Source of the DNA: Candidatus Babeliales bacterium | GTDB taxonomy: Bacteria > Babelota > Babeliae > Babelales > JACPOV01 | DNA length: 64,000 nucleotides | NCBI GenBank assembly: GCA_050250855.1 | Contig: JBFWNW010000004.1 | Location: 32,001 to 96,000, forward strand | Direction: 5' to 3' | In this document: positions 2,450-19,936 of the stretch, in pieces | Numbering within the stretch: the first letter of the stretch is position 1 | How the letters are laid out: each line of letters starts with the position of its first letter | Position numbers and translations under genes: made by a program | The notes under the pieces: generated by a model | Database searches by the model: none | What the model saw: only the letters and a program-made list of their open reading frames with translations | Told to the model about the DNA's origin: nothing

Positions 2450-3849
2450 TTGATTGTACCTTTATTATTCTTGGTGCAACGGGTGATTTGGCAAAGCGTA
2501 AACTTATTCCCGCTTTATATAAACTTGTGCAAGACAAAAAAATTCGCAATTTTTTAATTGTTGGCGCAGCGCTCGAGCAGGTAACTGCTGATGAATGTAT
2601 TGACCGTGGGCGCATCTTTATTCCCAATGTAGATGAAGAAATCTGGCGTCGTTTAAAAAAATCTTTTTATTATCAGCAGCTTGATTTTAATGACCATAAA
2701 GGGTTTAAGCATTTAAACCAATTTATTGATTCATTAGAAAAAGAGCACTCTTTTGCAGGCAATCGTTTAGTATATATGGCAGTTCCATCACTTTTTTTCT
2801 GTACTATAACTAAACATCTTGGTGCTTCTGGTATTGTTAAAAAATCTGACAGTAAAGGATTAGTAGGTGGCCATTGGCAGCGCATTATCTACGAAAAACC
2901 ATTCGGTACCAGTTTAGAATCTGCTCGTGATATTAATGCTTGCATACATGAATATTTTAATGAAAATCAAATTTATCGTATTGATCATTATTTAACAAAA
3001 GAGTTAGTAGGCAGTATTTTATTAGCGCGCTTTACGAATATGATTTTTGAACCACTATGGAATAGTAATTATATAGAAGAAGTGCAGATCATTTTAAGTG
3101 AAACACTCGGGGTAGAAGGAAGAGGAATTTATTATGATCAGTATGGTGTGTTAAAAGATATGGTACAAAATCATATGCTGCAACTGATGGCTCTTGTTGC
3201 CATGGAGCTTCCAGAGCAGCTTGATGCACATTATATTCGCGATCAAAAAGCAGCAGTACTCAAAAAAATAAAATGTGTAGGTGGCGTATTAGGGCAATAT
3301 GACGGGTACCTTCAAGAAAAAAATGTTGCTTCAAATTCGCAAACGCCAACCTTTGCCTTACTTGCTATGCATGTTGATACGCCTCGTTGGAAAGGTGTTC
3401 CTTTTTATATAAAAACAGGAAAAACATTATTTCACAAAAATAGTTCTATTCATATTAAGTTTAAAGAAGTTTCGTGTAAGTTGCGTGATCGTTGTATGTA
3501 TACTTCAGATTATTTGAGTATACAAATAGATCCTGATTCAAGTTTTTCTTTGCAATTGAATATTAAAAAACCTGGCCAAACCTATGAAGTAACGCCGGTT
3601 AATTTACATTTTAGTCATAATTATGTTTTTGGTACCACAACGCCAGAAGCATATGAAGTTCTTTTAGAACAAATTATGATGGGAGAACAATCGGTCTCAG
3701 TGCGTTTTGATGAAATAGAATCTTCTTGGCATATCATTGAGCAAATTGAGCAGCTTAAATTGCCAGTGCTCCCTTATAAGCAAAGTTCTCAAGGACCACA
3801 TGAAGCAGAACTTTTTGCAGAAAAACATAAATTATGGTGGCGAGCATGA
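2446..3849 (+). CDS. zwf: Glucose-6-phosphate 1-dehydrogenase
   Basis: GATGDLAKRKLIPAL, EKPFG, RIDHYL, DMVQNH motifs; ATGA overlap with pgi. Confidence 0.97.
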   Translation: MIDCTFIILGATGDLAKRKLIPALYKLVQDKKIRNFLIVGAALEQVTADECIDRGRIFIPNVDEEIWRRLKKSFYYQQLDFNDHKGFKHLNQFIDSLEKEHSFAGNRLVYMAVPSLFFCTITKHLGASGIVKKSDSKGLVGGHWQRIIYEKPFGTSLESARDINACIHEYFNENQIYRIDHYLTKELVGSILLARFTNMIFEPLWNSNYIEEVQIILSETLGVEGRGIYYDQYGVLKDMVQNHMLQLMALVAMELPEQLDAHYIRDQKAAVLKKIKCVGGVLGQYDGYLQEKNVASNSQTPTFALLAMHVDTPRWKGVPFYIKTGKTLFHKNSSIHIKFKEVSCKLRDRCMYTSDYLSIQIDPDSSFSLQLNIKKPGQTYEVTPVNLHFSHNYVFGTTTPEAYEVLLEQIMMGEQSVSVRFDEIESSWHIIEQIEQLKLPVLPYKQSSQGPHEAELFAEKHKLWWRA

Positions 3850-4742
3850 AAGTAGGATTTATAGGTTTAGGAAAAATGGGTTCTGCACTTGTAACGCGTG
3901 CATTGCAAGATGGTCACGAGGTTGTTGGCTTTGATACTCATAAAGAGAATTCACAAGATTTAAAGCAACATAAAAATTTTACGTTTGCACACGATTTAAA
4001 AAGTTTAGTAGATGACACACGGATACTCTGGCTCATGGTCCCGGCTGGCAAGATAGTGGATAACGTTCTTGATGAACTTAAGCCACATCTTGCTGGTCGC
4101 CCTATTATTGTAGATGGAGGCAATAGTAAATTTACTGACTCAATACGTCGCGCCAAAGAATTAGAAACGTGCGGCGTGCATTTTTTAGATTGCGGCACAT
4201 CGGGCGGTATACGTGGTAAAGAAATTGGTTTTTCATTAATGGTTGGTGGCAATCAAGATGCGTACGATGAAATAAAACCATTATTGCAATCATTAGCAGC
4301 ACCCAATGGTTTTGGGTACATGGGCCCTTCGGGTGCAGGGCATTATGTAAAAATGGTGCATAATGGCATTGAATATGCATTAATGCAAAGTTACGCAGAA
4401 GGATTTCATCTTTTAAAGGATGGACATTTTAAAGAATTAGACTTGGCAAAAATTTCTTCAGTTTGGTATAATGGCTCCGTCATTCGCTCATGGCTTTTAG
4501 AATTATGCCATGAAATTTTTCTGCACCCTGAAACATTACAAAAAATTTCAGGAAGCGTTGCAGAAAGCGGGATGGCTCAATGGACTATTGAAGATGCACA
4601 TAAGCATGACATTCCCGTTCAGCTCATTGAAGATGCGTTAGAGATTCGTTTTTGGTCACAGGAGACAGGAGGCAATTATGCTACAAAAGTTGTTGCAATG
4701 CTGCGCAATAAATTCGGCGGCCATGAAGTTCAAAAAAAATAG
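3846..4742 (+). CDS. gnd: 6-phosphogluconate dehydrogenase (short, YqeC-type)
   Basis: GLGKMG, DGGNS, GAGHYVKMVHNGIEY, LRNKFGGH; ATG 3846 overlaps zwf stop. Confidence 0.95.
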   Translation: MKVGFIGLGKMGSALVTRALQDGHEVVGFDTHKENSQDLKQHKNFTFAHDLKSLVDDTRILWLMVPAGKIVDNVLDELKPHLAGRPIIVDGGNSKFTDSIRRAKELETCGVHFLDCGTSGGIRGKEIGFSLMVGGNQDAYDEIKPLLQSLAAPNGFGYMGPSGAGHYVKMVHNGIEYALMQSYAEGFHLLKDGHFKELDLAKISSVWYNGSVIRSWLLELCHEIFLHPETLQKISGSVAESGMAQWTIEDAHKHDIPVQLIEDALEIRFWSQETGGNYATKVVAMLRNKFGGHEVQKK

Positions 4743-5031
4743 TTTACTGTTTATAGTTTTATGCAGTAGCCAGTTGGCATTAAGTTATCCACCACCATTT
4801 GAGTTGAGCAATAGAAAACCTCAACAACAAGAGATGTCAGAAAATGCTAGCACGAATCAGTTGCATAAGAAAAAAAATTTTGATTGTAATGATTGTTTAT
4901 CATGCAAGAAAAAAATGTGTGAGCGATTCTGGAAGCTAGACGAGGTAGTGTTTGCTGGACTCGCAATGGTTTTTCTAGGTGGTTGTAACTATTTATATGA
5001 ATCATGCAATGATAATACTCATTTAGAATAA
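4678..5031 (+). CDS. Signal-peptide membrane protein, array copy 1; 5' end overlaps gnd
   Basis: AGGAGG at 4667-4672 before ATG; hydrophobic leader ending QLALS; C-terminal TM segment with Cys; alternative start at 4723. Confidence 0.7.
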   Translation: MLQKLLQCCAINSAAMKFKKNSLLFIVLCSSQLALSYPPPFELSNRKPQQQEMSENASTNQLHKKKNFDCNDCLSCKKKMCERFWKLDEVVFAGLAMVFLGGCNYLYESCNDNTHLE

Positions 5032-5039
5032 GGTAAGTC

Positions 5040-5552
5040 ATGCTACAAAAATTGTTGCAATGCTGCGCAATAAATTCGGCGGCCATGAAGTTCAAAAAAA
5101 GTAGTTTACTGCTTATAGTTTTATGCAGTAGCCAGTTGGCAGTAAGTATGGATAAGCGCCAGCTAAAGCAGGGCCCAAAGGGTAATACTTTGAGTTCTTG
5201 CAAAGTTCTTGCAAAAAATGCAAAGAAAAATAAAAAACTTCAAGATTCAAAGAATTCTAAGATACAAAGAAATCGCCAGATGCCACAAGGAAACCGTCAG
5301 ATTTTGCCAAGAAACCTAGAACAAGGGGTTGAAGTTGTAGGAGAAATGGCGTTAATGCGAGATAATAATCATAATTATGCGCAATTTTTTAGATTTCCTG
5401 TGCTTTTTTCATTGATTATTTTTGTCATTTTCATGAATTTTAATAATGACACTAATAATACAAGACAAGAAATCCAGACTACAAAAGATTTCACTGGTCA
5501 TCATTTAGGATCACTTAAATCTACTTTTATGAATAATGAACCTAATCAATAA
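5040..5552 (+). CDS. Signal-peptide membrane protein, array copy 2
   Basis: Same 36-aa leader; basic N-region; hydrophobic FPVLFSLIIFVIF segment. Confidence 0.7.
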   Translation: MLQKLLQCCAINSAAMKFKKSSLLLIVLCSSQLAVSMDKRQLKQGPKGNTLSSCKVLAKNAKKNKKLQDSKNSKIQRNRQMPQGNRQILPRNLEQGVEVVGEMALMRDNNHNYAQFFRFPVLFSLIIFVIFMNFNNDTNNTRQEIQTTKDFTGHHLGSLKSTFMNNEPNQ

Positions 5553-5567
5553 AAACAGGAGACAATT

Positions 5568-5954
5568 ATGTTGCAAAAATTGTTGCAATGCGACGCAATA
5601 AATTTAGCAGACATGAAGTTCAAAAAAAGCTGCCTATTGCTTATGCTTTTATGCTGCAGCCAGTTGGCATTAAGTATGGAAGAAGGTGGTTTCCGTAAAA
5701 GAAAGCCTCAAGAACAACAGATGACACAGAGCGAAGATTCTGAGTTTCAAAAAGAAGTTGCTCGCCAGCGAGAAATAAACGAAGCAATACAAAAGCGGCA
5801 AGAAGCGGAATTTAGAGCAAGGGATAATGATTGTACTAATGGTTGTTTTTGTTTGATTGCTTTAGGGCTTATCTGTTTTGAGTTTTTGCTGCAACCTCTT
5901 CTTATTGCTTCATACTATAGTGACAGAGGAGATAACTGGCGTCCACCATATTAA
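5568..5954 (+). CDS. Signal-peptide membrane protein, array copy 3
   Basis: Same leader with AGGAG RBS; RKPQ-QQ motif shared with copy 1; Cys-containing TM segment. Confidence 0.72.
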   Translation: MLQKLLQCDAINLADMKFKKSCLLLMLLCCSQLALSMEEGGFRKRKPQEQQMTQSEDSEFQKEVARQREINEAIQKRQEAEFRARDNDCTNGCFCLIALGLICFEFLLQPLLIASYYSDRGDNWRPPY

Positions 5955-5985
5955 TCTTAAGATCTGAACCTTAAAATTAAATTTT

Positions 5986-6023
5986 AAAAAGGCTCAATGA
6001 TCAATGGTCATTGGGCCTTTTTT
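5986..6023 (+). terminator. Intrinsic terminator (probably bidirectional)
   Basis: aaaaaggctcaatga/tcattgggccttttt stem followed by T-run. Confidence 0.8.
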
Positions 6024-6070
6024 GCGTTATACTGCTAGGAAATTATTAACAAAAAACTTTAGTTATTTAT

Positions 6071-6796
6071 ATGGTATATTTTTTTCTTTTATTTTTTTTA
6101 TTGCATACGAGCACTGATCTATGCCAAGAGTATGAAACTTATTTTCAAGAATTTCCTCAAGCAATAAATTTTCACATTCTTAATTATGTGATATCAAATA
6201 CAACAAAAGCCAAGCATAAAATTGCAAAAATAAGCAACGTTAAGCCATTTGATGAACTCTGTGCATGGGAGTGGTCTGATACAGAGCATCCACGGCCTTT
6301 GCGTATAGAAAGTGCAATTCTTGCTAGTACAGAAATTAATACTAAAAATATTGCAGGAATATTGAAGCGTGCTGATCAATTGAAAGATGAAAAGAAAAAG
6401 CAAGAATGCTATAACGCCTTGAACGTTGCAGATCCTTGGTATATGCACTTCTATAATGCTCTTACGTGTGGCAGCTGTACTCTTTGCAGCTGTAAAACAG
6501 CTGACAAGCTTCATGCTGAACATGTTAAAAGTTATGAAAATTTAGTAAGGAAAAAATATGGTATTGAAGCGCTTGATGAAGAAAAAATTAAAACTATGTA
6601 TAATTTTAATAGTTATGTAGAGAAAAAAAAGAATGCTCAGTGCTTTGTACCACTATGTTTAGGAGGGACTTTTTTGAGTTTTGTTTGTTTTCCTTGCTTA
6701 ATAGTTTCACTCAGTGCTCAACTCTATGAAAACTATTGTTGTAGTTGTTGTGTGCGCTGCTGTCGTGAGTGTGATGAGGTTTCTTTTGCACACTGA
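6071..6796 (+). CDS. Secreted F-box-like, KYG-motif, Cys-rich protein
   Basis: Signal peptide; FQEFPQAINFHILNYV; YENLVRKKYGI; Cys-rich tail. Confidence 0.7.
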   Translation: MVYFFLLFFLLHTSTDLCQEYETYFQEFPQAINFHILNYVISNTTKAKHKIAKISNVKPFDELCAWEWSDTEHPRPLRIESAILASTEINTKNIAGILKRADQLKDEKKKQECYNALNVADPWYMHFYNALTCGSCTLCSCKTADKLHAEHVKSYENLVRKKYGIEALDEEKIKTMYNFNSYVEKKKNAQCFVPLCLGGTFLSFVCFPCLIVSLSAQLYENYCCSCCVRCCRECDEVSFAH

Positions 6797-6831: not shown

Positions 6832-7488
6832 ATGAGAAGATTTTTTTTTCTAGTTGGTTTGTATAGTTCTTATTTTTTTTGCCAAGAAAAAGATCTCCAT
6901 AATCTTGCAGTCCAACCTTATGATATAAAAAATACTGTTATCGATTTTGTTATGCAGCTGCCACCCAATAGTTCATGGCAAGAAAAAAAAGCAGTGCTCA
7001 AAGATACGCTCAGTTTAATGCAGGTCAATAAAGAATTTAAGCAGTTAATAAATACTAAAAAAGAAAAGCTAGAGCTTCTTAAAAAAGTTGTACTATTATT
7101 ATCCCCTGATGCAAGACCGACTCCTAAAGATATAAAATTTTGCATGGATTATGCTGTACAACAGAATGATAAAATAGCTCTCGATCGTGCGTATCAAGCA
7201 ATTTCAATAGGCCAAAAAGATGCTTTTGATAGTGGCTCTTTGTTTGAATTATGCTGCTATTTTCCATCGACACAAGAAAAAAATCTTATCTTTACTAATC
7301 AGTTTAATGATGCAGTACAAAAAAAGTACGGATTACAAAAAATAGACTATGAGCAGTTGCAAAAATATGAAAGCTATGAAACTTTTATATTTTGGAGATG
7401 GATTTTCAATTGTATAGTATGCCCATGCTATGTAGGATGTAAGAATAAGCCTTGGCAAAAGGGCATGAAAGGAGCAAGAATTGAATAA
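6832..7488 (+). CDS. Secreted F-box-like, KYG-motif, Cys-rich protein
   Basis: LAVQPYDIKNTVIDFV...SLMQVNKEFKQL; FNDAVQKKYGL; CIVCPCYVGC. Confidence 0.7.
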   Translation: MRRFFFLVGLYSSYFFCQEKDLHNLAVQPYDIKNTVIDFVMQLPPNSSWQEKKAVLKDTLSLMQVNKEFKQLINTKKEKLELLKKVVLLLSPDARPTPKDIKFCMDYAVQQNDKIALDRAYQAISIGQKDAFDSGSLFELCCYFPSTQEKNLIFTNQFNDAVQKKYGLQKIDYEQLQKYESYETFIFWRWIFNCIVCPCYVGCKNKPWQKGMKGARIE

Positions 7489-8038
7489 GTATACTACGTT
7501 CTGGGGCATATTCTTTTTTTGTACGACCGTTTTCTGTATGGATGATTCTCAGTTTATGTTCCCTATAAATCTTCCCATGTCTGAGCATCAAATAGAACTT
7601 GATCCAACATGCTTTCAAAATATAGGGGATATGTGTACTTGTGTATTACCAGGACCTCATGAGAAAACACCCTTTCGAGCATATTGGGATGAAGAATGTT
7701 ATAAAGGATTTACCCAGCGTGTCCAAGAAAAATATGGCATTGATAAACCTATTCCAGAAAAAAGCTCCCATGATTATTTACACTATCGAGCATCAAGAGA
7801 AGAGTATTTGGGCTGTTGTTTGGCTGGGCTGATAAACTCTTTGAGATGTTGCTGCTGCCCTTGCTTGACAGCATATTCATGCTGCTGTGATGTTTGTCCG
7901 TGTTTAGATGTTTGCCCATGGGAAAGCTATGCATGCGAATGGTTTTTAAAACCTGTATGTTGTGATGAAGATGCGTGTATAGGGTATTCTTGTTCAGCGT
8001 GTTGTTTTTGTTGCTGCACCGTGTGTGATAGTCAATGA
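7481..8038 (+). CDS. Secreted very Cys-rich KYG-motif protein
   Basis: TTG start after AAGGAG; signal peptide; FTQRVQEKYGI; CCCCPC and CCFCCC runs. Confidence 0.7.
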   Translation: MNKYTTFWGIFFFCTTVFCMDDSQFMFPINLPMSEHQIELDPTCFQNIGDMCTCVLPGPHEKTPFRAYWDEECYKGFTQRVQEKYGIDKPIPEKSSHDYLHYRASREEYLGCCLAGLINSLRCCCCPCLTAYSCCCDVCPCLDVCPWESYACEWFLKPVCCDEDACIGYSCSACCFCCCTVCDSQ

Positions 8039-8345: not shown

Positions 8346-8981
8346 ATGAAGATAATTGATATCAGTTGGCCTATCTCTGAAGCTATGACTGAATATAAGG
8401 ATGGCAAGTCGGTAAAACTTACGCCAACCAAAACTATGGAGCATAATGGCGTACGGGAATGGCTTTTGCAGATGAATAACCATACAGGAACGCATATAGA
8501 TGGCCCTGCGCATTTTCTTGCAACCGGGCAAACGATTGATAAGTTTGAATTGCAAAGTGTAATTGGTCCATGCCGCGTACTAGATCTAACCTCGGTGACC
8601 GAAAAAATAATGCCAGAAGATTTAGAGCCGTTTGGTATAGAAAAAAATGAAATTATTCTTTTAAAAACAACTAACAGTTTTCGCCAGCCTACCGATAATT
8701 TTACCTATAATTTTGCCTATATAAGTGACGCCGCTGCTCATTATCTTGCGCACGCACGCATAAAAGCGTTAGGCTTTGATTATCTTGGTATTGAGCGTAA
8801 CCAGCCAAACCATGATACGCACAAAGCATTTATGCAGTTTAATATTCCTATAGTGGAAGGATTGCGTTTAGGTGCAGTAAGTGCTGGTTCATATTTTTTT
8901 GTTTGTTTGCCACTGTATGCAGTTGGTCTTGATTCTGCACCGGCCCGTGCAGTGTTGCTTGAAGGGGTGAAAGTAACATGA
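8346..8981 (+). CDS. Cyclase family (kynurenine formamidase-like) metal hydrolase
   Basis: HTGTHIDGPAHF signature, GFDYLGI, IVEGL, DSAPARAV; AAGGAG RBS. Confidence 0.92.
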   Translation: MKIIDISWPISEAMTEYKDGKSVKLTPTKTMEHNGVREWLLQMNNHTGTHIDGPAHFLATGQTIDKFELQSVIGPCRVLDLTSVTEKIMPEDLEPFGIEKNEIILLKTTNSFRQPTDNFTYNFAYISDAAAHYLAHARIKALGFDYLGIERNQPNHDTHKAFMQFNIPIVEGLRLGAVSAGSYFFVCLPLYAVGLDSAPARAVLLEGVKVT

Positions 8982-9646
8982 AGAAGTTATGTATTATTTT
9001 TATGCTAGCAGGAACTTTGGGTGCAATGGAGCCGAAGAAATCTGACAAAGGTAAAAAAGAAACAACGCCATTGCTTAAAAAAGAGTCTAATTCATCTCAA
9101 TCGAGTGACTATCATAATTCAGGATTTGAGGTTTCTTCTTCTAGTGATGCTAGTTTGCTTAAGCCAACAACGCAAATGATGGAAGTTGAAGAGTGTGAAA
9201 AGAAGTATGAGCAAAGAAAAGAAATAATGCAGAAAGCTATAGCTGGCATAAAAGCATGTAGAAATAACATTGACAATGTGAAGCTTACTACTGATTATAG
9301 CTTTATTATTTGGGTTGCAAAAGATAAAGCTGAGGAATTTAAAAAATATTACTATCAGCTTGTTGCGGTGCAAAACTTACAACATAAAGATGAAAAGTGG
9401 GAAACATATCCTGTTTCTGGTAATTGTTGTTATAGCGGCACTCTTATAGAAAGAAAGACAGCTTCTATACGTCCAGTATTAGATGAAAACTGTTTGAGAA
9501 ACGAACTTGGTGATTTAGGTTGTTTACTCTATCGTGTTTTAACGGTATCTGAGTATGATGAATCATTGATGTTTTATTCTGATTTTCCTCGTAACGTTTC
9601 ACGAAATACCTTAACGGAGTATGTTAAAGAATCAAAACGTCATTAA
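8978..9646 (+). CDS. Secreted hypothetical protein
   Basis: MKK + hydrophobic core + LGA|MEP; ETTPLL motif; ATGA overlap. Confidence 0.75.
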   Translation: MKKLCIIFMLAGTLGAMEPKKSDKGKKETTPLLKKESNSSQSSDYHNSGFEVSSSSDASLLKPTTQMMEVEECEKKYEQRKEIMQKAIAGIKACRNNIDNVKLTTDYSFIIWVAKDKAEEFKKYYYQLVAVQNLQHKDEKWETYPVSGNCCYSGTLIERKTASIRPVLDENCLRNELGDLGCLLYRVLTVSEYDESLMFYSDFPRNVSRNTLTEYVKESKRH

Positions 9647-9666: not shown

Positions 9667-10506
9667 ATGATAAAAAATATAATACTTATTATAGGGATAA
9701 TTATTAGCTCATCAGTAGAGGGCATGGAACCTGAAGAGCTATTTCAAAAGCGCGTTGATGAAGAACAAAAAAAGAAAACAAAAAATTCGCCAAGACCAGA
9801 ACTTAATAAAAGGCTTGCTGTTTCTGAAGAAACGATACAAGCACATGATAAAAAAAGAGGGTTAACAGAAGCGTCTTTACTTTTTGTGCATCAGAAGAGA
9901 AATAGCCAGAACATTCTACCCGAAGGTCTTTCAAAAAGAAACTCTTATTATCAAGAGTATAGTCAGCTGGTGGAACTTATTAACGAAATTCCAGATGATA
10001 CTAAACGAGAAAATTTTGTTAAAACTATAATAAATAATAAGCAAGAAGAAGAGTTTGTTGCAAAAATGATCAATATTATTAACGAAAATGTGGTTGACTG
10101 TGAGATTAAATATGTAAGTCATACTGTTGATTATGAATCTGGCTGCACCATTACCGTACGAGCTATCCATAGCAAACAGCTTAAAAAAATCTTTTTAACC
10201 TTAAATGAACTTTATAAGCAGGAACAAGAAAAAGTATCTCTAGAAAATAAGCCAAAAAAAGGATCGTTCCTTAATATTTTTAGTTGGTCATTTTCAGAAA
10301 AAAAATCAGAAAAAGTGCCTGAGTCTGTTTTCAAAGAAAAAGAATTTAAAAAATTTGATACATGCCAAGACAATATTCTTTTTGAGCTTGCAACAAAGGG
10401 CTGCTATTTTGATGGCAGAACGCATTATACTCTTGATGAAATATTTAAGTTTAGCAAAGAAATTTCACCATACTCAGAAAGCTCACAGAATTTGTTTGGT
10501 GAATAA
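9667..10506 (+). CDS. Secreted hypothetical protein
   Basis: Signal peptide ...VEG|MEP; 279 aa. Confidence 0.75.
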   Translation: MIKNIILIIGIIISSSVEGMEPEELFQKRVDEEQKKKTKNSPRPELNKRLAVSEETIQAHDKKRGLTEASLLFVHQKRNSQNILPEGLSKRNSYYQEYSQLVELINEIPDDTKRENFVKTIINNKQEEEFVAKMINIINENVVDCEIKYVSHTVDYESGCTITVRAIHSKQLKKIFLTLNELYKQEQEKVSLENKPKKGSFLNIFSWSFSEKKSEKVPESVFKEKEFKKFDTCQDNILFELATKGCYFDGRTHYTLDEIFKFSKEISPYSESSQNLFGE

Positions 10507-19011: not shown

Positions 19012-19936
19012 GAATTATTTGTTTAGAGATAAAAGATTTAAAAGTTCTGTTTATTCAAATACACCTTTTACGCAGCAGGTACATGGAAAAAATAACCAAC
19101 CATAAAACGTTTTGCCTTCTTCAAAATTTCTTTTTCCAGTAGAATCATATTTGTCATGACAACAGTCATGTGCTATTAGAGAGCCCACACAGCAAAGAGG
19201 GCAAAAGATCAGTTGTGTGGCGGTACGTGCACTACACATAAGAAGCCATATTCCGGTGCCTAAATAGTATTTTCTTGATTTTTTATATTCTTCATAATTT
19301 CCATGTTCCAATGTACTAGAAGAAGCGATGCCATATTTTTGTTTAATGCGTTTGGTGTAGTTTTCTTGGCAGATTTCATTCCATTTTTCTTCTTCTTCCG
19401 GCCATCGCATACACCATGGCACGGTGCAAATACAGCAATCTTGGCAAGTATCCAAACAGTCGGATTGATAATCCATTTTTTTGTAAGCTTTTTGCATTGT
19501 TATTTGATCATTATTTTTTTGAGCAATTTCAATAATTTTTTTTGCATTTTTTGGTGTTAATCTTAAATGTTGAGCAAGAAGCTTTTCAAGTTTGGGACTT
19601 CTTGAGTTTGAGAGTGGCTCAAGGTTGCTACACAATGTATGAAAATGCTTATTAGTTTTTGCCATTGCTTTAATTGTTTTTAAACTATCTTCACTGTCAG
19701 TGGCAATATATTCTAAGATGTGCAGTTGCACAGGAAGCGGCACCTCATTCAGATAATCATACGCAACTATTTCTTGTTTTGAATCTTTTAACAAAGGCGT
19801 AGTTTCTGATGTCATTGCATTAAAAGAATATGCTGCGGTAATTATTGTTAGGTACGTTATACATTTATTCATATTTATCCCTGATAGTGTGATTTTGAAT
19901 TATTTGTTTAGAGATAAAAGATCTAAAAGTTCGGTT
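19009..19936. repeat. 43-bp direct repeats (19009-19051, 19894-19936) flanking the F-box-like gene
   Basis: tttgaattatttgtttagagataaaagat(t/c)taaaagttc(t/g)gtt, 41/43 identical; second copy spans the ankyrin gene 3' end and stop. Confidence 0.92.
19051..19872 (-). CDS. Secreted F-box-like, KYG-motif, Cys-rich protein
   Basis: FNA|MTSETTPLL; LNEVPLPVQLHILEYI...AMAKTNKHFHTLC; YTKRIKQKYGI; Cys clusters. Confidence 0.8.
   Translation of the reverse strand: MNKCITYLTIITAAYSFNAMTSETTPLLKDSKQEIVAYDYLNEVPLPVQLHILEYIATDSEDSLKTIKAMAKTNKHFHTLCSNLEPLSNSRSPKLEKLLAQHLRLTPKNAKKIIEIAQKNNDQITMQKAYKKMDYQSDCLDTCQDCCICTVPWCMRWPEEEEKWNEICQENYTKRIKQKYGIASSSTLEHGNYEEYKKSRKYYLGTGIWLLMCSARTATQLIFCPLCCVGSLIAHDCCHDKYDSTGKRNFEEGKTFYGWLFFPCTCCVKGVFE

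Follow-up and report, generated by a model that had tools for sequence, protein, structure and literature searches.

A putative tandem array of three small exported-protein genes at the 3' end of gnd in a Babeliales bacterium

Results

Three small genes with a common leader at the 3' end of gnd

An array of three small open reading frames (ORFs) was found at the 3' end of gnd, the gene for 6-phosphogluconate dehydrogenase, in a 64,000-nt stretch of DNA (contig JBFWNW010000004.1 of assembly GCA_050250855.1, positions 32,001 to 96,000; hereafter the window, whose own numbering is used throughout). The organism is a member of Babeliales (Dependentiae, TM6), which are parasites of protists, and its genome is represented by 1,218,285 bases in 11 contigs, with about 35% GC and a completeness of 95.08%. 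The first small gene starts inside gnd, and the following two are separated by gaps of 8 nt (gene 1 stop to gene 2 ATG) and 15 nt (gene 2 stop to gene 3 ATG). The hairpin that closes the array has a folding energy of -24.8 kcal/mol (z = -4.04), and 1 of 200 shuffled sequences folded equally well. At E <= 0.01, Pfam gave no family for any of the small ORFs of the array. The features of the locus are listed in Table 1.

The three genes share a direct repeat of 108 nt. With the first copy as the reference, the second is 96% identical (104/108) and the third 81% (88/108), in agreement with the initial annotation, in which the block had been described as recurring at 5040 with 4 mismatches and at 5568. 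A DNA search of the whole genome detected the block at exactly three places, all of them in the array. Copy 1 begins with 65 nt that correspond to the last 21 codons and the stop codon of gnd, read in the +1 frame. In its own frame gnd ends in ETGGNYATKVVAMLRNKFGGHEVQKK followed by the stop, and the frame of the ATG at 4678 reads MLQKLLQCCAINSAAMKFKKNS and then enters a hydrophobic stretch ending QLALS. This ATG and the AGGAGG before it, both already recognized in the initial annotation and confirmed here, lie in the gnd codons for T-G-G-N-Y-A, and an inner ATG at 4723 lies in the codons for G-H-E. Gene 1 therefore overlaps gnd by 65 nt if translated from the outer start (MLQK) or by 20 nt if translated from the inner start (MKFKK).

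Relics of the gnd tail were also detected in front of the other two genes. By tblastn with the Gnd protein as the query, the relic at copy 2 corresponds to residues 277-298 (86%, E = 8.2e-6) and that at copy 3 to residues 271-298 (68%, E = 6.0e-5). The alternative-frame ATG is kept in both and is preceded at -10 to -7 by AAGG in copy 2 and by GGAG in copy 3, so the earlier remark that it is accompanied by a sequence like a ribosome-binding site holds. Sequence derived from gnd thus gives copies 2 and 3 their ATG or ATGs and the codons of the signal-peptide n-region, and gives copy 3 its GGAG resembling a Shine-Dalgarno (SD) sequence as well. The proposal that a housekeeping-gene tail had been exapted as a translation start stands in so far as the 5' end of gene 1 is overprinted on gnd and gnd-derived ATG and n-region codons front copies 2 and 3; MLQK itself is one of two candidate starts. 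RNA folding of the three leaders (z = 0.47, 0.83 and 0.12) revealed nothing beyond the shuffled sequences.

Table 1. Features of the gnd locus and its surroundings (window positions; aa, amino acids)
Feature	Position	Strand	Remarks
M50 peptidase gene	before pgi	-	Pfam
pgi-zwf-gnd block		+	joined by 4-nt ATGA overlaps; pgi and zwf by Pfam; gnd is the last gene
gnd, short-type 6-phosphogluconate dehydrogenase, 298 aa	3846..4742	+	Pfam NAD_binding_2 1.3e-40, 6PGD 1.2e-22
Promoter-like site inside gnd, TTGGCA-18-TATAAT with TG, 11/12	4443..4472	+	possible internal promoter, lead only
AGGAGG in gnd Thr-Gly-Gly codons, SD-like	4667..4672	+	GGAGG at -10 to -6 of ATG 4678
Small gene 1, 117 aa from MLQK ATG 4678 or 102 aa from MKFKK ATG 4723	4678..5031	+	
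Leader copy 1	4678..4785	+	45 nt before the MKFKK ATG and 63 nt of signal peptide ending ALS
A8 run	4732..4739	+	over gnd Lys-Lys codons and signal-peptide n-region; Lys in either frame
Small gene 2, 170 aa, inner ATG 5085	5040..5552	+	leader 5040-5147; gnd-tail relic 5036-5101
Small gene 3, 128 aa, inner ATG 5613	5568..5954	+	leader 5568-5675; gnd-tail relic 5546-5629, including gnd-derived GGAG 5558-5561
Intrinsic-terminator hairpin, 17-bp stem then T run	5986..6022	+	closes the three-gene array
Second orphan family, three paralogues (241, 218, 185 aa)	6071-6796, 6832-7488, 7481-8038	+	no Pfam family
ORF of 71-81 aa	between second orphan family and cyclase-family gene		
Cyclase-family gene	8346..8981	+	Pfam Cyclase 4.9e-25; far edge of the 3.6-kb insertion hot spot
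Two further signal-peptide ORFs	8978-9646, 9667-10506		after the cyclase-family gene
DJ-1/PfpI gene	past the two signal-peptide ORFs downstream of the cyclase gene	-	Pfam

Relative age of the two frames

Gene number and identity downstream of gnd were checked in 20 related loci, as the initial annotation had suggested. The Gnd tail motif TGG(N/D)Y.TK.VA..R..FGGH is kept in all 20. A +1-frame ORF of at least 113 aa was observed at two loci, those of this genome (G000) and of a genus-mate (G001); at the other 18 this frame is open for 4-45 aa. The +1-frame ATG is present at 13 of the 20 loci, being a by-product of TAT-GCN. The long ORF occurs in three copies in G000 and in one in G001. These comparisons indicate that the gnd frame is the older one, and that the downstream frame is younger and taxonomically restricted. 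As in other overprinted pairs, nucleotides are shared in different frames (from 4678 or 4723 to 4742) and the older frame is conserved.

The restriction was also seen on a wider scale. In a search of 5.8 billion clustered proteins, covering lengths of 62-298 aa, 5 of 1587 candidates were obtained at E <= 0.01; three were the proteins of the array itself, and the others were the G001 protein (P0003) and a close relative (P0005). When 261 genomes of the order were searched in six frames, strong matches (E <= 1.9e-33) were obtained in two genomes only. Weak matches (E from 8e-6 to 0.0097) were observed in 18 other genomes, and 6 of the 8 loci inspected among them proved to be signal peptides of larger, unrelated proteins. 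In metagenomes, 414 stretches matched a protein-pattern scan for more family members, and none was confirmed. One metagenome contig recovered by a DNA-pattern scan was rejected, as it carries only the conserved gnd tail with the cyclase gene directly after it.

Homology and architecture of the mature parts

The segments downstream of the signal peptides (cargos) were aligned locally and compared with 500 shuffles. Significant similarity was observed between cargos 1 and 3 (z = 3.2, 6/500), between cargo 1 and the G001 protein (z = 4.8, 1/500), and between cargo 3 and the G001 protein (z = 5.9, 0/500). These three proteins have in common an R-K-P-Q-x-Q-x-M stretch, a C-x-x-C motif and a transmembrane (TM) helix. 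Cargos 1 and 3 and the G001 protein thus appear to be diverged homologues, each consisting of a signal peptide, a disordered charged linker, a Cys motif and a C-terminal TM segment. In the AlphaFold2 model of copy 1, the mean predicted local distance difference test (pLDDT) score is low (57.5); helices span residues 5-21 and 55-96, and residues 25-55 fall below a pLDDT of 50. For copy 3, the ESM Atlas provided no usable match by features, and its structure neighbours are generic helical membrane-anchored proteins.

Cargo 2 showed no in-frame similarity to cargos 1 and 3 or to the G001 protein in the same test (z < 0 for all three pairs). Cargos 1 and 2 are no more alike than shuffled sequences, either as protein (z = -0.7) or as DNA (z = 0.1). 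Elsewhere in the genome no cargo paralogue better than E = 0.015 was detected, and cargo 2 has none. The layout of cargo 2 is the same as in the other copies, with signal peptide, basic linker and TM segment. When its own frame was compared with the +1 frame of cargo 3, a score of 51 was obtained, including a common RNLEQG; with the maximum taken over all 27 frame pairs, 2 of 300 codon-shuffled and 0 of 300 mononucleotide-shuffled sequences scored as high. This match is a hint, not proof, that cargo 2 may be a frameshifted descendant of the same gene as the other cargos.

The initial annotation had described the three genes as carrying different cargos, all ending in a TM-like segment. The first statement fits copy 2, for the lack of in-frame similarity, but not cargos 1 and 3, which resemble each other and the G001 protein. 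As to the second, a second hydrophobic segment is located near the C-terminus in all three (17-residue Kyte-Doolittle means of 1.86, 2.43 and 2.44 for genes 1-3), but the copy 2 protein does not end there and continues for about 38 polar residues. At the off-frame stop rate of this genome (0.083), the chance of mature frames as long as these (81-134 codons) staying open is 9e-4, 9e-6 and 3.5e-4, so the array members are unlikely to be open by chance and are presumably real ORFs. Since cargos 1 and 3 and the G001 protein are homologous and cargo 2 has the same architecture, most of the array would be explained by tandem duplication of whole genes.

The identity step at the end of the signal peptide

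Copies 1 and 2 become similar within 4 nt of the ATG, and the last codon of their similar part is AGT, which encodes Ser -1. In successive windows of 30 aligned columns, the two agree at 29/30, 30/30, 22/24 and 23/28 positions, and then at 10/29 and 14/28, which bears out the earlier observation that the similarity stops exactly after ALS/AVS. Four differences in 108 positions separate leaders 1 and 2 (three nonsynonymous, one synonymous), and leader 3 differs from leader 1 at 20 of 108, though cargo 3 can still be aligned to cargo 1. Because selection for a signal peptide alone leaves the near-identity at synonymous sites unexplained, recent gene conversion or a recent transfer of the leader between copies 1 and 2 is the simplest account, and in our judgement a fairly probable one. 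A leader conserved while the ectodomain changes appears again outside this genome: the G001 protein and P0005 share their first 33 residues without a difference, against 15 differences in the 64 that follow. 

A step at this place is also what would be expected if the leader were a portable 108-nt module, copied onto unrelated coding sequences to build an array of different cargos. The 'recombination handle' of the initial annotation corresponds to this model, and its kernel, the sharp fall from 96% to random identity, is retained. Cargo 2, with neither in-frame similarity to the others nor a paralogue in the genome, could be such a sequence, and the vpma/vsp loci of Mycoplasma offer a parallel in which, in the portion of the source considered, a conserved 5' untranslated region and signal peptide serve as the recombination substrate (PMC2268961). 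The homology of cargos 1 and 3 with the G001 orthologue, however, is at odds with unrelated cargos, and even cargo 2 has the same layout and the weak out-of-frame match to cargo 3. Moreover, the copies number only three and are adjacent, in direct orientation and with all genes on the + strand; no recombinase domain was detected by Pfam in 16 ORFs between 273 and 12400. We therefore consider the portable module unlikely.

Contigs of four metagenome runs, among them runs X1 and X2, which are possibly the source samples, were compared over 3600-6600. No joint, indel or rearranged form within the array was detected in the contigs of three runs, a weak negative in that rare variants are lost from contigs. 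Like unitigs, the contigs are interrupted at the repeat, and the piece 4690-4738 has roughly twice the depth. The sole joint listed connects 3721 with 4326 in zwf/gnd, one of its sides being 25 nt long, and was dismissed as most likely coming from other organisms. No evidence was found for programmed or ongoing recombination at the array.

The same contigs bear on slippage-controlled expression, in which the A8/A7 runs of the leaders and the A7-A8 runs of cargo 1 would switch the genes on or off, or would join Gnd to the product of gene 1 through a +1 shift, to yield phase-variable surface proteins. The A run of the leader is A8 in copy 1 and A7 in copies 2 and 3, and the A8 is located exactly at the gnd stop and the leader n-region, where a +1 shift would enter the frame of gene 1. 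The indels and frame differences between copies likewise suggest frameshifts in the past. No variation in run length was observed in the contigs of the four runs, although contigs hide minority variants, and A7-A8 runs are frequent at a GC content of about 35%, so that slippage control appears highly improbable. Runs of this kind were noted at 4732-4739, 4869-4876 and about 4903-4909 (leader and cargo 1), 5094-5100 and 5622-5628.

Signal peptides and predicted export

Export was judged from motif and hydropathy only. The h-regions give 17-residue Kyte-Doolittle means of 1.48-2.03 and the c-regions read A-L-S, A-V-S and A-L-S, which together correspond to the Sec-type pattern. The basic n-region follows the Met directly if translation starts at MKFKK (copies 1-3) or MLKK (G001); the MLQK start would produce an atypical n-region of 22 residues. 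The residue after ALS/AVS is Y or M. There is no lipobox Cys at +1, and Cys occurs in the signal peptides only within the h-region. After Sec export and cleavage, each product would be a small single-pass membrane protein, with a disordered charged part outside the cytoplasm and a C-terminal helix as the anchor. The term effector, used in the initial annotation, was a guess and is not adopted here, as signal peptides are very common in Dependentiae: in the parts of the Chromulinavorax destructans study considered, 44% of coding sequences carry them, with enrichment in ORFans (PMC6561590).

A side observation concerns signal peptides located directly before Met-Glu or Met-Asp (...[A/S/G/C] followed by M-[E/D]), which were found in 63 ORFs of the genome, for instance 8978-9646, 9667-10506, 5040-5552 and 5568-5954. 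When the same pattern was counted for each residue, Met gave 63, Gln 41 and all others 28 or fewer, though Met accounts for 2.1% of residues. The M-E/M-D ending was also observed at 5 of the 8 weak-match loci in other Babeliales, and at a sixth the signal peptide ends before M-H. Two explanations of this signature are conceivable: a cleavage or sorting motif peculiar to the lineage, or an additional start codon from which a form lacking the signal peptide is made. It is not mentioned in the parts of the Chromulinavorax paper considered (PMC6561590).

Two candidate start codons

Translation of the small genes may start at MLQK or at MKFKK, with roughly even odds, and both may be used. As a measure of SD usage in this genome, an SD 4-mer was found at -18 to -7 of the first ATG in 339 of 778 long ORFs, against 49 of 778 in a control window, and GGAG peaks genome-wide at -8 to -12 before such starts. 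GGAG(G) or AAGG is present at -10 of all three MLQK ATGs, and none at the MKFKK ATGs. At copies 2 and 3, the MLQK ATG follows the stop codon of the gene before it by 8 and 15 nt, respectively, a spacing consistent with translational coupling. Conservation in copy 3 is on a par in the 45 nt upstream of MKFKK (36/45) and in the signal peptide (52/63). The initial annotation had proposed to examine which frame is constrained in the copies freed from gnd: in the MLQK frame, the changes of copy 3 within these 45 nt include fewer nonsynonymous ones than random (p = 0.011 against copy 1, p = 0.027 against copy 2), and the gnd frame of the same 45 nt shows no such pattern (p = 0.61), a contrast drawn from small numbers, with three frames that could have been tested.

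Other observations favour MKFKK. Signal peptides of 15-28 residues define the set of 63 ORFs with the M-E or M-D ending, of which 54 have no upstream in-frame ATG; the MKFKK signal peptide, with 21 residues, is typical of this set, and the MLQK form, with 36, is beyond its maximum. At 6 of the 8 loci inspected, the signal peptides of the weak-match proteins of other Babeliales have MKF.., MKL.. or MKK.. as their very first residues. The inner ATG of G001 is one codon further on and has its own GGAGG; because of this shift, an ATG before basic residues is kept in G000 and G001 by different gnd codons. The forms on record are the short ones for copy 1 (102 aa, P0004) and G001 (97 aa), but the long ones for copy 2 (P0002) and copy 3 (P0001), which illustrates how gene callers split on the start at such overlaps.

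A more far-reaching proposal, possible but in our view doubtful, is that the 45 nt represent a translated N-terminal extension under purifying selection, born by overprinting in the gnd tail and released by duplication from the constraint of gnd, and that the leader is kept uniform by conversion with the gnd tail as a partner. If so, the 3' end of gnd and the array of exported proteins would co-evolve, and frameshifts downstream of an unchanging start and export module would be the source of new cargos.

The pattern of changes is also relevant to whether the duplicates function at all. Only gene 1, or none of the three, would be functional if copies 2 and 3 were young, pseudogene-like duplicates in decay whose similarity reflects recency, as the tiny size of the family, the unlikeness of cargo 2 to anything else and the neutral appearance of the differences between leaders 1 and 2 (three nonsynonymous, one synonymous) might suggest. 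Leader 3, however, is 19% diverged and keeps its ATG, SD sequence, open frame, hydrophobic core (with conservative changes) and cleavage-type motif. The C-terminal TM segment is kept in all copies, the spacing is tight (8 and 15 nt), frames of 81-134 codons are open against chances of 9e-4 to 9e-6, and nonsynonymous changes in the MLQK frame are depleted as given above. Decay of the duplicates is thus considered improbable.

Surroundings of the array

The promoter-like site inside gnd is located about 200 nt before the array. Its TATAAT falls in the W-Y-N codons of Gnd and may be incidental, and the region contains 20 promoter-like sites against a shuffle mean of 18.0, that is, no excess. On the minus strand, opposite leader 2 and the 3' end of gene 1, there is an ORF of 118 aa with a TTG start (4847-5203). 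We regard it as a probable shadow ORF; because it spans both of these elements, it would be impossible in the single-copy genus-mate.

A second orphan family, represented by three paralogues, lies downstream of the terminator hairpin. Its members have a signal peptide ending before Q-E or M-D, a ..(K/E)KYG(I/L).. motif and a Cys-rich hydrophobic C-terminus. They detect each other by tblastn at E = 0.004-0.044, and more members were found at C1:60378-61097 and C4:51153-51683 (window about 19153-19683, minus strand). G001 carries one copy at the same place, with an N-terminal LPLDVKRIIVNCIL stretch that may resemble an F-box.

The cyclase gene lies within 1.5 kb after gnd at 11 of the 20 related loci, and 3.6 kb downstream in G000 and 1.9 kb in G001. 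Because it follows closely in the relatives and stands this far off in the two genus-mates, the interval between gnd and the cyclase gene appears to be a lineage-specific insertion hot spot. The interval holds one copy of each orphan family in G001 and three of each in G000. Two more signal-peptide ORFs (195 and 75 aa) were observed in the hot spot of G001 (locus L024, 5072-5659 and 5731-5958). They have no obvious counterpart in the window, and therefore the content of the interval seems to turn over quickly.

Discussion

From sequence comparison, the locus is likely to be a lineage-specific tandem array in which an overlapping gene was duplicated together with the tail of gnd. Its three small products, exported or anchored in the membrane, would belong to a single orphan family, each with a Sec-type signal peptide, a charged and disordered linker, a Cys motif, a C-terminal TM helix and a short tail. 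As a first step, in the common ancestor with the genus-mate, the founding gene would have come to start inside the last codons of gnd. The conserved T-G-G-N-Y-A and G-G-H-E motifs happen to encode an SD sequence with an ATG and a second ATG, and the Lys-rich, A-rich tail reads as a basic n-region in the +1 frame. Such a tail, with its A8-encoded Lys residues, would be a ready-made n-region and probably eased the evolution of the overlap. Two tandem duplications in this genome, with breakpoints inside gnd, would then have left a relic of 66-84 nt on copies 2 and 3, where it may now act as the translation-initiation region and N-terminus. The mature parts would have diverged very fast by substitutions and indels, copy 2 probably by a frameshift as well, and the leader would have been kept similar partly by selection on the signal peptide and, for copies 1 and 2, probably also by recent gene conversion. 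The array is probably co-transcribed with pgi-zwf-gnd and translationally coupled, with transcription ending at the hairpin.

Several points weigh against this scenario. The evidence on the start codon conflicts, the SD sequences and the substitution pattern favouring MLQK and the canonical form of the signal peptides favouring MKFKK. The case for gene conversion comes from one pair of copies with four differences. The out-of-frame match behind the proposed frameshift is a single local match of about 50 residues, and the DNA score between cargos 2 and 3 is not significant (z = -0.2); cargo 2 could be an unrelated sequence given a copied leader. The structure model of copy 1 is of low confidence.

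The array combines known elements, namely a tandem array of secreted ORFans, a same-strand overlap and a conserved leader, and is neither a new mechanism nor a new class of system. Within the same phylum, the signal-peptide ORFans and tandem arrays of Dependentiae, as far as the source was considered (PMC6561590), are likewise small, fast-evolving, Sec-type, tandem, lineage-specific and without Pfam family. What differs here is that the first gene starts inside a housekeeping gene, and that each duplicate has a remnant of this gene for a leader.

Young frames overprinted on old genes are known in bacteria such as E. coli, to judge from the part of the source considered (PMC4683798). As in those same-strand cases, a young frame lies here over an old, conserved one, and its start signals are by-products of the old codons. 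Unlike the E. coli examples, the overlap is short (20-65 nt), covers the N-terminal leader only, and was later copied off its parent. The vsp/vpma loci of Mycoplasma are clusters of genes with strong conservation in the 5' untranslated region and the signal-peptide region and no homology past the N-terminal region, according to the portion of the source considered (PMC2268961). The conserved 5' region with signal peptide and the divergent mature parts are found here too. The Mycoplasma genes, however, encode lipoproteins, have a site-specific recombinase nearby and undergo inversions, whereas the present array has no lipobox Cys, no recombinase in the 16 ORFs scanned and no inversion that we could see.

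Two further likenesses concern the leader. If translation begins at MLQK, its extension would recall the extended signal peptide region (ESPR) of autotransporters and two-partner secretion proteins, a conserved N-terminal extension before a classical signal peptide, in that about 15 conserved residues would likewise precede the signal peptide. There is no Pfam match at E <= 0.01, the passengers here are tiny and membrane-anchored, and the extension is derived from gnd. In Borrelia, neighbouring Erp/Elp-type genes have an upstream homology box and leader in common and differ in their mature parts; most cargos here, in contrast, are homologous. In a narrow literature search, no description of a housekeeping-gene tail serving as the leader of duplicated exported genes was found, only general or eukaryotic cases.

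The locus shows in one place how host-dependent bacteria may make new exported proteins. The steps captured would be the supply of an SD sequence, an ATG and an n-region by the gnd tail, the adoption of this piece by a downstream gene, its copying by duplication, and the divergence of the mature parts, possibly by frameshift. As such, it may be useful in teaching how overprinting works and how the Dependentiae secretome evolves.

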